Below are positions 1-45,610 of a stretch of DNA of 45,610 bases, one piece after another (position 1 is the stretch's first letter; each line of letters opens with the position of its first letter). The notes below the pieces were generated by a model. It ran no database searches. It saw nothing but the letters and a program-made list of their open reading frames with translations, and was not told the DNA's origin. Source of the stretch: a virus; the IMG/VR virus record IMGVR_UViG_2853968202_000001, positions 1-45,610 of that record; one strand, written 5' to 3'. The translations under genes and the position numbers were made by a program.

Positions 1-92
1 ACTACTACTACTACTAGAAAGTAGTAGTGTAGTGTGTACACAGCAGGTACACTCTTTGGGAAAACCTAAGTGCCTGTGTACACACTGTGTAC
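1..92. repeat. Terminal direct repeat, left copy (identical to 45519-45610)
   Basis: Read directly: ACTACTACTACTACTAGAAAGTAGTAGTGTAGTGTGTACACAGCAGGTACACTCTTTGGGAAAACCTAAGTGCCTGTGTACACACTGTGTAC occurs at both window ends. Confidence 0.95.
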
Positions 93-93
93 A
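33..93 (+). promoter_or_regulatory. Cluster of three TGTGTACA(CA) palindromic boxes upstream of the RHH gene (candidate operator)
   Basis: TGTGTACACA at 33-42 and 75-84, TGTGTACA at 86-93. The last box ends 6 nt before the ATG at 100. The boxes are self-complementary. Confidence 0.45.
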
Positions 94-99
94 TAGACG

Positions 100-1191
100 A
101 TGGGACGTACTAACGGCTCCAAGGTAAAGCGGCATCTTGCACTCCGGAAAGAGGCTTCCGACACTCTCGACGAACTGGCGAAGGACTCGACGATGAACCT
201 CGGAGAGATCGTGAGCGAGGCGATTCTCGAGTATTCAGACCGTGACCGGCTTGCACGAGTCGAAGGAAAGGTCGACAACCTTCTCGAGGAACTGGGGGCA
301 TCTCAGGACTCTACCCACGCCTCCGGAGTAACTCCGGTTGAAAAGAAAAAGAACTCGCAGGCGATCTCAGATTTTGATCCACTCGAGTACGATCCCGACG
401 AGTTCGAGGGGACGCTCTCGAAAGACGGGCTCGAGGAGTTGATCCAACTCGAGGAGCCCGAGATCGCACTCGATCACGTGGATACATCCGACCTGCCGGG
501 CAACACTGACGATAAGGCGACAGTGCTGGCGGCAACGCTCCGGCACGAGAATGACAAATTCGTGTTCCAGGACCAGATCGTGGATCGAATCAGCGAAACG
601 CTTGGAAACAGCTACTACTACCACAACACGTACGACGACCTCATCGCGAGCCACTTCGACCAATTCGAGGACATCACACAGGGAGAAGATGGGTTCTATA
701 CGCGTGCCTCTGAAGACCGCTACTTCGTCACCGAGGAGGTCAAACTGGCGCACTATCGGACGCGCTTCAACGACACGAGAGAGTCCGCAAGCGGCGAGAT
801 AGCGGAGACATCTAGGGCGACAGGACCGCTGATTGACCTTCCACGAGAGAAGCCATATCCGTACTATCTGAAGTGGCTTAACGAGTTCAGTGGCGAGCTG
901 GTGAAACACGATATCGCTACCTCTGACGAGATCGCTACAATCAAGCGAGACCTCGCTTCGAGCTTTTCTGATGTCAGGGACTCGATAGCGGATCTGATCG
1001 ACTTGGCGAGTCGAAGCCCGCCTCACGATTGGTTTGAGTACGAGGAAGCAGTTGATATGCTCGAGTACAACGACGAACAGGCTCGAGACCTCCTCGAAAC
1101 ACTCGATGAGTGGGCGTATATCGCAGAGAATGCGGACCGGAAGGACCACTGGAAGGTTGTGGCCGGAAACCTTCCCGGAGGTGAACTCTAA
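100..1191 (+). CDS. Ribbon-helix-helix (CopG/Arc-like) N-terminal domain protein with a large acidic C-terminal domain of unknown function (363 aa)
   Basis: ATG start. N-terminus KVKRHLALRKEASDTLDELAKDSTMNLGEIVSEAILEY fits a strand-helix-helix pattern. Acidic haloarchaeal composition. First gene of the operon containing ParA. Confidence 0.75.
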   Translation: MGRTNGSKVKRHLALRKEASDTLDELAKDSTMNLGEIVSEAILEYSDRDRLARVEGKVDNLLEELGASQDSTHASGVTPVEKKKNSQAISDFDPLEYDPDEFEGTLSKDGLEELIQLEEPEIALDHVDTSDLPGNTDDKATVLAATLRHENDKFVFQDQIVDRISETLGNSYYYHNTYDDLIASHFDQFEDITQGEDGFYTRASEDRYFVTEEVKLAHYRTRFNDTRESASGEIAETSRATGPLIDLPREKPYPYYLKWLNEFSGELVKHDIATSDEIATIKRDLASSFSDVRDSIADLIDLASRSPPHDWFEYEEAVDMLEYNDEQARDLLETLDEWAYIAENADRKDHWKVVAGNLPGGEL

Positions 1192-1283
1192 TGGATAACT
1201 CCCCCGACGGTTTCGACCACGGCTACCCCGTTAAGACGGTCAAACTTTCCGCAGAACAGATCCTCGAGCAGTATCGCGTCTGA
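1191..1283 (+). CDS. Small hypothetical protein (30 aa), possibly translationally coupled (TAATG overlap)
   Basis: Hand translation gives MDNSPDGFDHGYPVKTVKLSAEQILEQYRV. The ATG overlaps the upstream TAA. Below the ORF-track length cutoff. Confidence 0.25.
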   Translation: MDNSPDGFDHGYPVKTVKLSAEQILEQYRV

Positions 1284-1335
1284 CGTAGCTTTAAGCTCTC
1301 CGAGATCTTTGCTCTCTTTGAGGCAGGAGAGCTAT

Positions 1336-2109
1336 ATGAGAATCGGAGTTACCAATCAGAAGGGAGGAGCCGGCAAGACGACAACCACGCTGAACGTGGC
1401 CGGCGCGTTGAACCAACTCGGGAACGATGTCCTCGTGATCGACTTGGATCCACAGGGCCACGCCACCGAAGGACTCGGATGCGAGGATCTGTACGACGAC
1501 CGCGAGCGCGACTCGTTGTTCGATGTACTCCCCGACCTGGACCGAATGGACGACCTTGACCAACTGATCATCGAGCACGATGAGGTCGATGCCGTCCCGT
1601 CGCACGAGAAGATGATTAATGCCGAGGACGCGCTCGCGAACGTGATGAAACGCGAGGAGCGCCTCGACATGCTCCTCGAGGAGACTGACCAAGACTACGA
1701 CTACGTGCTGGTCGACTGCCCGCCGAACCTCGGCGTGCTCACGGACAACGCGATCGTCGCGACGGGAAACGTGCTGATCCCGGCACAGGCGAAGACAACG
1801 TCGATCCGTGCAATCAAACTCCTGTTCAAGCAACTCCGCTCGATCGAGTCCGCGTTCGGCGATGTCGACGAACTCGCGCTGGTCGCGAACGAGGTCGAGG
1901 TCGACGGCGAGGCCGACGAAATGATGGACTGGTTCAGAAATGTCTTTGAGGACAAAGACGGGTGCGAGGTTTTTGAGGTCAGAAAGCGAGTCGCCTTGCA
2001 GCGCGCCTGGAACAACGGCGTCTCGATCTTCGAACACGAGGAAGAGTCTGATATGGAAGATGTGTATCTCGATGTCGCCCGGCACCTGGAGGCGTTCGGC
2101 GATGAGTGA
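1336..2109 (+). CDS. parA: ParA/Soj-family partition ATPase
   Basis: Deviant Walker A KGGAGKTTT in MRIGVTNQKGGAGKTTTTLNVAGAL, followed by DLDPQGHAT and VLVDCPPNLG. Internal ATG at 1336 is preceded by AGGAGAG. The track ORF begins at 1309. Confidence 0.9.
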   Translation: MRIGVTNQKGGAGKTTTTLNVAGALNQLGNDVLVIDLDPQGHATEGLGCEDLYDDRERDSLFDVLPDLDRMDDLDQLIIEHDEVDAVPSHEKMINAEDALANVMKREERLDMLLEETDQDYDYVLVDCPPNLGVLTDNAIVATGNVLIPAQAKTTSIRAIKLLFKQLRSIESAFGDVDELALVANEVEVDGEADEMMDWFRNVFEDKDGCEVFEVRKRVALQRAWNNGVSIFEHEEESDMEDVYLDVARHLEAFGDE

Positions 2110-2470
2110 CAAGCGCGATTACGACCCGTGGGACGACCGCTACGACGGGAGAGACAACTCAAAGAGCGAGGAGACGACAGAGACGGCAGATACATCAAAG
2201 ATGCAACAGAGCACACAGACGGAAGAGAGTTCAGAGAACTCAAAGGGTGAAGGTGGTTCAGAAACAGTCCGCGAGCGCAGGAACGTAAACATGTACTTGC
2301 CGGACGACCTCGTCGACGACCTGCAACTGCGGTACTCGGAACTGAACGTCAAGTGGCGACGGGAGCACGGTGACGATCTCCCGAAGAATGGCGAGTTCTA
2401 TCCAGCGGCGATCCGCGCAGCGCTGAACGAAACGTCGATCGAGGAGGAGCTCGGCCTCGACGACGAGTGA
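2102..2470 (+). CDS. Small acidic ParA-partner protein with an RHH-like C-terminal segment (candidate centromere-binding adaptor)
   Basis: ATG at 2102 overlaps the end of parA by 8 nt (ATGAGTGA). RRNVNMYLPDDLVDDLQLRYSELNVKWRRE resembles a strand-helix DNA-binding unit. Position immediately after parA. Confidence 0.6.
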   Translation: MSDKRDYDPWDDRYDGRDNSKSEETTETADTSKMQQSTQTEESSENSKGEGGSETVRERRNVNMYLPDDLVDDLQLRYSELNVKWRREHGDDLPKNGEFYPAAIRAALNETSIEEELGLDDE

Positions 2471-2587
2471 CGGGTTCGGGGCGTCCTTTTCTAGCGCGGC
2501 ATGTGATTCACACCGGTCTCGCGGCATCAACCCTTTCCCTCGAGCCGCCGAGACTGGGGATCCGGACACTGATCACTCGAGACACAA

Positions 2588-44842: not shown

Positions 44843-45165
44843 CCTCACAAGAGTCCATCTGAAACCGCAGTGTGGTCGGGACGCCAACTTCAACTGCTTC
44901 GAGCACCGTCTGAAGCGGTTTGGTCTGGTCTCCGCAACCACAAAACTGTATCGGCGTGGTTGGACACCCGACAACGGACGGACACAGGACATTACTCGCC
45001 TAATGTACACTGTCGGCACTACTCGTCAATAAATCACATACTGCGATACGTATGGTGTAGGAGGTCTTCAAAAGGGCGGATGTCGTCTAGACTAATAATA
45101 CGGTTCGCACATATCCACAGGAAATAAACCAAAGAACAATATGCGCGCGTGACGTGTCTATAACC

Positions 45166-45378
45166 ATGCAGGGGAACGATCCGGATGAGTTTGACCGTGT
45201 GGACGCAGCCCGTCTGATCGTCAAAGAACAGGACTCAGACGAGATGTACGAGACACTCAAGATGGTTGCTCGAGAGATGGCGAAGACAGGAAACGGCGTC
45301 CAAGCAGCGGACCTCATGCGGAAAGAGGCCAACCGGACGTTGACGAGTGTCTCCGACACCGAAGACGTTGCTGAATAA
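45166..45378 (+). CDS. Small hypothetical protein (70 aa)
   Basis: ATG at 45166 (the track ORF starts at a GTG at 45154). Followed by two strong hairpins. Confidence 0.5.
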   Translation: MQGNDPDEFDRVDAARLIVKEQDSDEMYETLKMVAREMAKTGNGVQAADLMRKEANRTLTSVSDTEDVAE

Positions 45379-45422
45379 CGACGGCCCAGCCGAGATTTTC
45401 TTTTTCGAGCCCCAAACCAACG

Positions 45423-45446
45423 AAGGGGTCCCCCCGGGGACCCCTT
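45423..45446 (+). terminator. GC-rich perfect hairpin AAGGGGTCCCC-CC-GGGGACCCCTT
   Basis: 11-nt arms are perfectly complementary. Starts 45 nt after the stop at 45378. Confidence 0.5.
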
Positions 45447-45467
45447 GGAACTCTAATCCGCCGATAG

Positions 45468-45489
45468 AGGCCCCCTCTCGAGGGGGCCT
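45468..45489 (+). terminator. GC-rich perfect hairpin AGGCCCCCTC-TC-GAGGGGGCCT followed by ATTGTTTCC
   Basis: 10-nt arms are perfectly complementary. T-rich tract follows. Confidence 0.5.
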
Positions 45490-45497
45490 ATTGTTTC

Positions 45498-45564
45498 CTG
45501 CTGTGCTACTGCACAACTACTACTACTACTACTAGAAAGTAGTAGTGTAGTGTGTACACAGCAG
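45498..45564. repeat. Long imperfect palindrome containing (ACT)6-AGAA-(AGT)n
   Basis: CTGCTGTG (45498-45505) pairs with CACAGCAG (45557-45564). (ACT)6 at 45516-45533 pairs with AGTAGTAGTGTAGT at 45538-45551 across an AGAA loop. The interior is only partly complementary. Confidence 0.7.
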
Positions 45565-45610
45565 GTACACTCTTTGGGAAAACCTAAGTGCCTGTGTACA
45601 CACTGTGTAC
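45519..45610. repeat. Terminal direct repeat, right copy (identical to 1-92)
   Basis: See the left copy. The window ends inside the third TGTGTACA box. Confidence 0.95.

Follow-up and report, generated by a model that had tools for sequence, protein, structure and literature searches.

The window, that is, the whole 45,610-nucleotide stretch of IMG/VR record IMGVR_UViG_2853968202_000001 that was analyzed, is a complete haloarchaeal siphovirus genome. The reading that we favor, with a probability of roughly 0.65 on the sequence comparisons made here, is that of a temperate siphovirus that persists as a partitioned plasmid and does not integrate. We favor it because the ParA-DUF8160 partition cassette of the window is nearly identical to that of the haloarchaeal virus PhiCh1 and because virus-like plasmids are present in two cultured haloarchaea. 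The genome is clearly a mosaic by sequence relatedness, combining head and tail genes like those of the Halorubrum provirus Humcor1, a PhiCh1-like partition cassette, and a replicon like that of a Natrinema plasmid. The absence of an integrase, together with the presence of ParA, looks like a changed lysogeny strategy rather than an annotation gap, since the structural lineage is otherwise integrative.

In the scheme proposed here, lysogeny would take the form of a circular low-copy plasmid instead of integration. The virus-encoded Orc1/Cdc6 would initiate replication, probably at elements flanking orc1 or at a group of 18-bp iterons, and the ParA ATPase and the small DUF8160 adaptor would distribute copies to daughter cells, with the adaptor binding a centromere that may correspond to the conserved palindromes just 5' of parA. 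PadR, winged-helix, and ribbon-helix-helix (RHH)-like regulators would keep the late genes off. We infer the plasmid state, the origin, the centromere, the DNA binding of the adaptor, and temperateness.

A partition cassette in common with PhiCh1

In the partition ATPase (Table 1) the deviant Walker A motif (KGGAGKT, residues 9 to 15) is intact and an N-terminal helix-turn-helix (HTH) domain is absent; together with the small size of the protein, these are the features of a type Ib-like ParA, and its best relatives in the PDB are ParA/Soj proteins. Identity is 88.6% to the ParA of PhiCh1, a virus whose sequence is the same as that of plasmid pNMAG03 of Natrialba magadii, and 38 to 43% to the ParA proteins of ChaoS9 and PhiH. 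At least 164 records of haloarchaeal plasmids include a homolog, those listed having at least 46% identity. In comparison with PhiCh1, the ratio of nonsynonymous to synonymous substitution rates (dN/dS) is 0.10 for parA, with a dS of 0.80, and 0.2 to 0.3 for the partner gene; parA is therefore under purifying selection and is no relic. With its Walker A motif intact and its dN/dS low, the protein does not look inactive; an inactive-looking ParA is what the preliminary description had named as counting against its proposal.

The partner gene encodes a DUF8160 (PF26492) protein that is 51% identical to PhiCh1 ORF47 by tblastn and 58% identical in a global alignment. In all homologous cassettes examined, the DUF8160 gene follows parA and overlaps its stop codon. 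We regard DUF8160 as a putative centromere-binding adaptor. In the AlphaFold model the confident C-terminal segment consists of an extended stretch and then three helices, the first two long and the third short, an arrangement compatible with an RHH monomer. Conservation with PhiCh1 and other elements extends over ~70 nt 5' of parA, including two palindromes. The region at 1277-1335 contains the CGTCTGACG palindrome, a TATA-like TTTA(T) box, and the CTCTTTGAG palindrome, both palindromes being single copies, and is a candidate operator or centromere. Promoter, ParA, and DUF8160 are thus conserved as one unit at ~1277-2470. The ParA operon had earlier been drawn as 100-2470; the cassette part of that assignment stands, and the open reading frame (ORF) at 100-1191 falls outside the conserved unit.

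The same cassette was found in IMG/VR contig IMGVR_UViG_3300019927_000129 (10001-18802; ParA 85% identical), where it is followed by convergent large tail fiber-like genes, one of which encodes a product 35% identical to that of window ORF 10716-11591. The placement of the cassette beside fiber genes is common to this contig, the window, and the plasmid pGSL19_54.9 described below. Pfam searches of the cassette neighbors in three IMG/VR contigs added little. A tyrosine recombinase of ~200 aa lies near the cassette in PhiCh1 (locus L090, from MK450543.1, 3041-3640) and in the related contigs L021 (12667-13263) and L094 (11902-12510), and these enzymes are possibly multimer resolvases. In contig L093 a larger integrase of 340 aa is encoded ~8 kb from the cassette.

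Relationship to plasmid proviruses, virus-like plasmids, and phage-plasmids

PhiCh1, PhiH1, and ChaoS9 (Vertoviridae, Myohalovirus) are temperate haloarchaeal tailed viruses whose proviruses are circular plasmids, and those of PhiH1 and PhiCh1 carry ParA (PMC6471424). The window has the ParA-DUF8160 cassette and its conserved promoter in common with the PhiCh1 group, of which ChaoS9 also has an Orc1. The viruses of that group, in contrast to the window, have a myovirus-type virion module, RepH, and a pair of tyrosine recombinases (Int1, an invertase, and Int2, which is beside ParA), whereas the window has a siphovirus module, Orc1 as its only initiator, and no recombinase that could be found. 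Within the PhiCh1 record at 27927-36688 and the 18 kb around the pNMAG03 ParA gene, the matches to the window are confined to ParA, ORF47, and a PadR-like gene. Sheath, baseplate, and RepH families had no match in the window in Pfam or PHROGs; the PhiCh1-type structural module and RepH replicon of Vertoviridae/Myohalovirus were thus not found in it.

Two plasmids from cultured strains also resemble the window. The first, plasmid unnamed4 of Natrinema thermotolerans A29 (CP031301.1), is a 49.4-kb circle that carries tail genes and ParA. It has a replication and early module in common with the window (Orc1 67%, PadR 62%, and other genes 71 to 85% identical, together with the repeats that flank orc1) but differs in its structural module, the lack of a related TerL, a distant ParA (36%), and the presence of a tyrosine integrase. 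The second, pGSL19_54.9 of Halobacterium sp. GSL-19 (NZ_CP070376.1, 54.9 kb), encodes a portal, a protease, a major capsid protein (MCP), Cdc6, ParA, and a TerL that is 59.6% identical to that of the window. Its layout is that of the window, with a small ORF downstream of parA beside tail genes and no annotated integrase. Its head module is full. It differs from the window by a type I-B CRISPR-Cas interference module and by a TerL that contains an intein (Hint domain), and identities to the window are 40% for ParA and 30% for Cdc6. By annotation, pGSL19_54.9 is a second candidate for a recombinase-free virus-plasmid.

Bacterial phage-plasmids (the P1, N15, and SSU5 groups) likewise combine virion genes with an autonomous replicon and ParA-type partition without integration. 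The window has the corresponding features, namely, a complete virion module, partition genes, a predicted initiator of its own, and no integrase that could be found. Homology to phage-plasmid genes is confined to generic ParA and HK97 folds; the initiator is of the archaeal Orc1/Cdc6 type, and neither a multimer-resolution recombinase (cf. Cre of P1) nor a telomere resolvase was detected. The preliminary description had called the element an archaeal counterpart of phage-plasmids, which fits, but archaeal plasmid proviruses with ParA were already known from the myohaloviruses PhiH1 and PhiCh1 (PMC6471424); what is new here is the different virion lineage.

Searches for a recombinase and a tRNA-like element

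No tyrosine or serine recombinase and no DDE transposase was found among the 69 genes by using Pfam (E values up to 0.01) and PHROGs, and NCBIfam gave no recombinase for Orc1 and nine unknown proteins. Pfam gave none for the 20 longest shadow ORFs either. Six-frame tblastn, phmmer, and a small profile built with the BJ1, Humcor1, and Natrinema plasmid integrases returned only noise, as did tblastn with PhiCh1 Int2. The sole match in the "integration and excision" category was the AAA+ domain of Orc1, and as a positive control the Pfam Phage_integrase model found the Natrinema plasmid integrase at 1.5e-9. These hidden Markov model (HMM) searches in three libraries agree with the earlier reading of the translated ORFs, in which no recombinase had been seen.

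It is conceivable that the virus integrates by means of a host recombinase (e.g., XerA) or an unrecognized one of its own, with a tRNA-like element at 28973-29030 serving as attP. All described Graaviviridae, the family of the nearest structural relatives, encode tyrosine integrases and integrate (Liu et al., PMC8651126), and about half of the proteins of the window are unassigned, so that products of ORFs such as 100-1191, 35996-36796, and 43967-44842 are candidates for an unrecognized enzyme. We nevertheless regard this as quite improbable. Neither the libraries nor the six-frame searches gave a recombinase signal, the modeled DUF8008 protein has no recombinase fold, and a conserved partition cassette would not obviously be needed by an integrating virus. 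The tRNA-like element is also unlike an att core and had no match in plasmid or phage collections.

The properties of this element bear out that last point. It scored 14.9 bits (E value of 8.7 in a 1-kb search), which is under the threshold for every tRNA model; ARAGORN found no tRNA gene in the window, and no Rfam family reached its threshold. Its predicted fold is moderately better than those of shuffled sequences (z = -2.7). An origin as a remnant of the BJ1/Humcor1 tRNA-Phe gene was rejected, as only the generic T loop aligns. Where an attachment core derives from a tRNA gene, it reproduces the 3' portion; here, in contrast, both acceptor strands are present, and an anticodon arm and an integrase are absent. 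The element was therefore rejected as an att core and is read as a relic or structure rather than an attachment site. Of the earlier suggestion that the T-arm/acceptor-like sequence at 28974-29029 resembles an att core, the tRNA-like fold stands, weakly, and the att core is not credible.

The virion module and its relatives

The virion module occupies 2.6 to 27.3 kb on the minus strand and holds all of the parts that had been claimed for it: TerS, TerL, portal, MuF, protease, MCP, Neck1, frameshifting chaperone, tape measure protein (TMP), and fibers. Structural calls were made from Pfam and PHROGs, and some came from identity to Humcor1 or from position alone. Since none of the genes of the window matched tail sheath or baseplate families in Pfam or PHROGs, the virus is assigned as a siphovirus. 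The chaperone has a canonical slippery heptamer, G_GGA_AAC, at 15933-15927 (minus strand), in phase and immediately before the stop codon (TAA), and the -1 frame (ORF 15712-16008) stays open for 72 codons past that stop, to 15712, which bears out the frameshift that had been proposed. No HMM support was found for the major tail protein candidate. In the distal region, the product of ORF 3937-5274 has a polysaccharide-lyase-14-like domain at its C terminus and that of ORF 5275-7245 a BppU_N domain, a fiber-like pair that hints at a receptor-binding apparatus degrading glycans. The remaining distal tail and fiber genes (3.9 to 12.1 kb) had no relatives in the loci examined.

The head and tail block is collinear with that of Humcor1, an inducible Halorubrum provirus, with identities of 58% for TerL, 54% for portal, 49% for protease, 49% for MCP, and 37% for TMP. 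Humcor1 and BJ1 are Halorubrum viruses of the Graaviviridae (Kirjokansivirales) with genomes of 42 to 46 kb. The only structural match to BJ1 is TerL (66%), and the early genes common to the window and these two viruses encode Orc1 (40 to 41%), PadR, and a zinc-ribbon protein; by a rough count, ~19 of the 69 genes are common with Humcor1 and 5 with BJ1. Both viruses have a tyrosine integrase, an MCM helicase, and a tRNA-Phe gene, all three of which the window lacks, and neither has an annotated ParA, which the window has. The attP of Humcor1 matches a tRNA-Met gene, and its host carries a chromosomal copy. Of the features of Graaviviridae, the window therefore has the relatedness in TerL, portal, and MCP and the siphovirus tail but not the tyrosine integrase.

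The state of this module also bears on whether the molecule might be a plasmid carrying a provirus that is defective or domesticated and no longer yields infectious particles. Its replication and partition genes are plasmid-like, and pGSL19_54.9 has been described as a plasmid with a provirus locus (bioRxiv 10.1101/2025.06.17.660064). The genes from TerS to the fibers are, however, intact, tightly packed, and collinear with those of an inducible virus, the slippery site of the chaperone is preserved, and 45.5 kb fits the capsid lineage of BJ1 and Humcor1. A defective provirus thus seems quite unlikely.

Evidence bearing on the plasmid state

Bases 1 to 92 are an exact copy of 45519-45610, giving a circular unit of 45,518 bp, and the terminally redundant unit of ~45.5 kb that had been reported is thereby confirmed. 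The repeat resembles the overlap left when a molecule that is circular or circularly permuted is assembled. The extrachromosomal state is taken from comparison and this circular assembly, and headful packaging also yields circular assemblies, as argued for Humcor1 (PMC7911831). A circle would therefore also be expected of a virulent or chronic (carrier-state) virus, for which it would be terminally redundant, circularly permuted virion DNA and ParA would have a role in lytic replication or be a recent gain that does not support stable lysogeny. The TerL of the window is of the Terminase_6N type and related to those of the headful packagers BJ1 and Humcor1, and no repressor has been experimentally identified. 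Such a virus is unlikely in our view, as purifying selection acts on ParA and its partner, whose cassette nearly matches that of a known plasmid provirus, the many PadR, winged-helix, and RHH-like regulators and the divergent control region are as in temperate relatives, and related elements live as plasmids in cultured strains.

Other observations also weigh against a temperate virus kept as a partitioned plasmid. Its nearest structural relatives are integrative: Humcor1 and BJ1 have integrases, and a relative in Halostagnicola A56 lies within a 712-kb contig. The Natrinema plasmid, with its more distantly related ParA, likewise encodes an integrase. A tyrosine recombinase is near most of the other ParA-DUF8160 contexts examined (PhiCh1 Int2, L021, and others), and the window has no equivalent of the small cassette-linked enzyme, so that the multimer-resolution function may be missing or unrecognized. 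No centromere was identified, and the RHH fold of the adaptor is unconfirmed, Foldseek having given no significant match to the DUF8160 model. Around half of the genes have no assigned function, and the whole element has no close relative in the collections searched, leaving none to check for integrated copies. For the partitioned low-copy episome put forward in the preliminary description, then, the virion module, ParA, Orc1, and the lack of a detected integrase all hold, while its extrachromosomal state is one that we infer.

Our broader hypothesis is tentative, and we give it somewhat less than even odds. ParA-DUF8160 and its promoter may be a portable lifestyle module that travels between unrelated tailed-virus lineages (Vertoviridae myoviruses and Graaviviridae-like siphoviruses) and ordinary haloarchaeal plasmids; its gain, with loss of the integrase, may have made a plasmid provirus out of a member of an otherwise integrative lineage. 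In that case DUF8160 would be an uncharacterized archaeal centromere-binding adaptor, and recombinase-free tailed virus-plasmids would be recurrent and underrecognized in haloarchaea. If this is true, the candidates are the window, pGSL19_54.9, and IMG/VR contig 3300019927_000129. The mosaic illustrates the free swapping of maintenance modules between archaeal viruses and plasmids, and the element would be a compact recombinase-free candidate for studying archaeal partition (ParA plus DUF8160) and viral replication that depends on Orc1. Until a host is found, its practical value will be modest.

Replication genes, repeats, and the early region

Matches to Cdc6_lid and TIGR02928 uphold the Orc1/Cdc6 initiator first reported at 39088-40158 (Table 1). 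The protein is a clear yet divergent Orc1/Cdc6 with a predicted initiator role, 67% identical to that of N. thermotolerans plasmid unnamed4 and 40 to 41% identical to those of BJ1 and Humcor1. A ~30-nt element of the pattern AAAG..TGACG.GC..GTTTCGGAGAGGA flanks orc1, and in locus L001 (CP031301.1) a pair (4433-4445 and 6184-6196) flanks orc1 in matching positions and orientation. This pair is a candidate origin recognition box or duplicated promoter/operator, and the 18-bp iterons between the divergent operons are a candidate origin or regulatory switch. The divergent pair of small acidic ORFs at 38508-39058, for which no HMM support for an RHH fold was found, are candidate switch regulators.

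Table 1. Features of the window, with coordinates, strand, and basis of assignment
Feature	Coordinates	Strand	Basis or remark
Direct repeat	1..92	.	Closes the unit; holds an (ACT)5-6 microsatellite
Palindromic boxes TGTGTACA(C/T)A, three copies	33..95	+	Upstream of ORF 100-1191
Acidic protein, 363 aa	100..1191	+	Weak N-terminal RHH_1, E 0.017
ParA promoter/operator region (candidate)	1277..1335	+	Conserved with PhiCh1 and other elements
ParA partition ATPase, 257 aa	1336..2109	+	Pfam AAA_31 3e-41; PHROG ParA-like 5.7e-50
DUF8160 (PF26492) ParA partner	2102..2470	+	8-nt overlap of its start with the parA stop
Three small accessory ORFs, two with membrane-like segments	2588..3847	-	Translations
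Distal tail and fiber genes	3937..12105	-	Pfam, PHROGs
Tape measure protein, 864 aa	12115..14709	-	PhageMin_Tail 2.8e-49; 37% to Humcor1 Tmp
Tail assembly chaperone (15924-16568) with -1 extension	15712..16568	-	Slippery site
Putative major tail protein	16575..17078	-	Position; 30% identity to Humcor1 HrrHm1_070
Head-tail connector/completion genes	17149..19814	-	Pfam, PHROGs, Humcor1 comparison
HK97 gp10-like/Neck1	18290-18664	-	Pfam, PHROGs
HK97-fold MCP	19816..20967	-	Weak DUF6260 and Linocin_M18; phrog_771/264; 49% to Humcor1 Mcp
Small head protein	20979-21437	-	52% to Humcor1 HrrHm1_030
Prohead protease/scaffold fusion	21462-23000	-	Solely 49% to Humcor1 Pro
MuF-like head morphogenesis protein	23050..23895	-	phrog_758 8e-29
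Portal	23905..25521	-	Phage_portal_3 2.5e-28
TerL	25525..26850	-	Pfam; 66% to BJ1, 58% to Humcor1, 59.6% to pGSL19_54.9
Probable TerS	26847..27338	-	phrog_21336 2e-43; phrog_9231 TerS 9e-6 (weak)
tRNA-like element	28973..29030	-	7-bp acceptor stem, D-like arm, T arm; anticodon arm absent
Early/regulatory operon	29110..38195	-	Pfam, PHROGs
Winged-helix regulators	30040-30273, 34758-34985	-	Early operon
DUF8008 protein	33606-34454	-	Early operon
Zinc-ribbon protein conserved in BJ1/Humcor1	35996-36796	-	Early operon
DUF7344 protein	36797-37267	-	Early operon
HTH-HNH endonuclease, HTH N-terminal	37267-37821	-	PHROG HNH 6.5e-37; adjoins PadR
PadR	37824-38195	-	Early operon
8-bp tandem repeat TTGCAGGA, four copies, perfect-looking	38190..38223	.	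Overlaps PadR start codon region
~30-nt element, copy 1 (…TGACGCGC…GTTTCGGAGAGGA)	38361..38387	+	Flanks orc1
Divergent small acidic ORF pair	38508-38726, 38819-39058	-, +	RHH-like by eye
Orc1/Cdc6-type initiator (predicted)	39088..40158	-	Cdc6_lid 1.4e-12; TIGR02928 5e-38, below curated cutoff
~30-nt element, copy 2	40192..40218	+	34 to 60 nt upstream of orc1 start
Tat-signal lipoprotein (TRRKAIVG…LLAGC)	40285..40716	-	Translation; 35% to N. thermotolerans plasmid protein
18-bp iterons, four to five, …T(A/G)TGGGA…	42585..42660	.	AT-rich, between divergent operons
Rightward operon, small acidic and zinc-ribbon proteins	42718..45535	+	Includes 291-aa protein 43967-44842

Among the early genes is one for an HTH-HNH protein; HNH genes or fusions also occur among the DUF8160 homologs of other elements (P0093, P0094, and P0097). 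The DUF8008 gene, with ~200 to 270 nt on each flank (33413-34728), has 82 to 85% DNA identity to Haloterrigena turkmenica and Natrinema zhouii plasmids. Members of its family number more than 300 and occur on both chromosomes and plasmids of Natrialbaceae, with several in each genome. In the model of this protein, the largest conserved one without an assigned function, a long coiled coil precedes an alpha/beta domain that is DNA-binding-like. A role as a cryptic recombinase or transposase was rejected; the structural matches were weak and nonsignificant only, to winged-helix Rep initiators.

Composition, host, and database relatives

The genome has 69 tightly packed genes (called by codon usage), with noncoding gaps of at most 546 nt and a GC content of 55 to 66% across the window. 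The proteins are strongly acidic, with aspartate plus glutamate at ~20% and lysine plus arginine at ~10%, and the Tat lipobox protein noted earlier is visible in the translation of 40285-40716. All close matches are to Halobacteria, and the nearest ones are to Natrialbaceae. The haloarchaeal host originally suggested is accordingly confirmed and can be narrowed, and on these sequence matches it is probably within the Natrialbaceae, because the DNA is 80 to 85% identical to Natrinema and Haloterrigena plasmids, DUF8008 is 76 to 85% identical to named proteins of Haloterrigena and Natrinema, and the closest ParA is that of a Natrialba virus.

Exact look-up of the TerL and ORF 100-1191 proteins retrieved no record, and metagenome scans with the ORF 100-1191 protein and Orc1 gave no match. 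IMG/VR scans returned partial relatives only, with TerL identities of at most 84% (on short contigs) and one MCP match at 52%; Orc1 was matched only in the Natrinema plasmid. The one genome scan yielded a single relative, distant and integrated, in Halostagnicola A56. PADLOC returned nothing for ten unknown proteins except coiled-coil noise.

ORF 100-1191 and its palindromic boxes

The acidic protein encoded by ORF 100-1191 had appeared to be an orphan in a word-indexed search, a status that was rejected when 24 distant homologs were found. One of these is on a conjugation-like plasmid contig, and two other contexts were uninformative. The TGTGTACACA palindrome has three copies before ORF 100-1191 and a fourth at 34457-34466, just upstream of the DUF8008 gene, making 4 unique sites compared with 0.25 expected by chance. 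These boxes are candidate operators and, since copies precede both ORF 100-1191 and the DUF8008 gene, their distribution suggests that a single regulator acts on the two genes.

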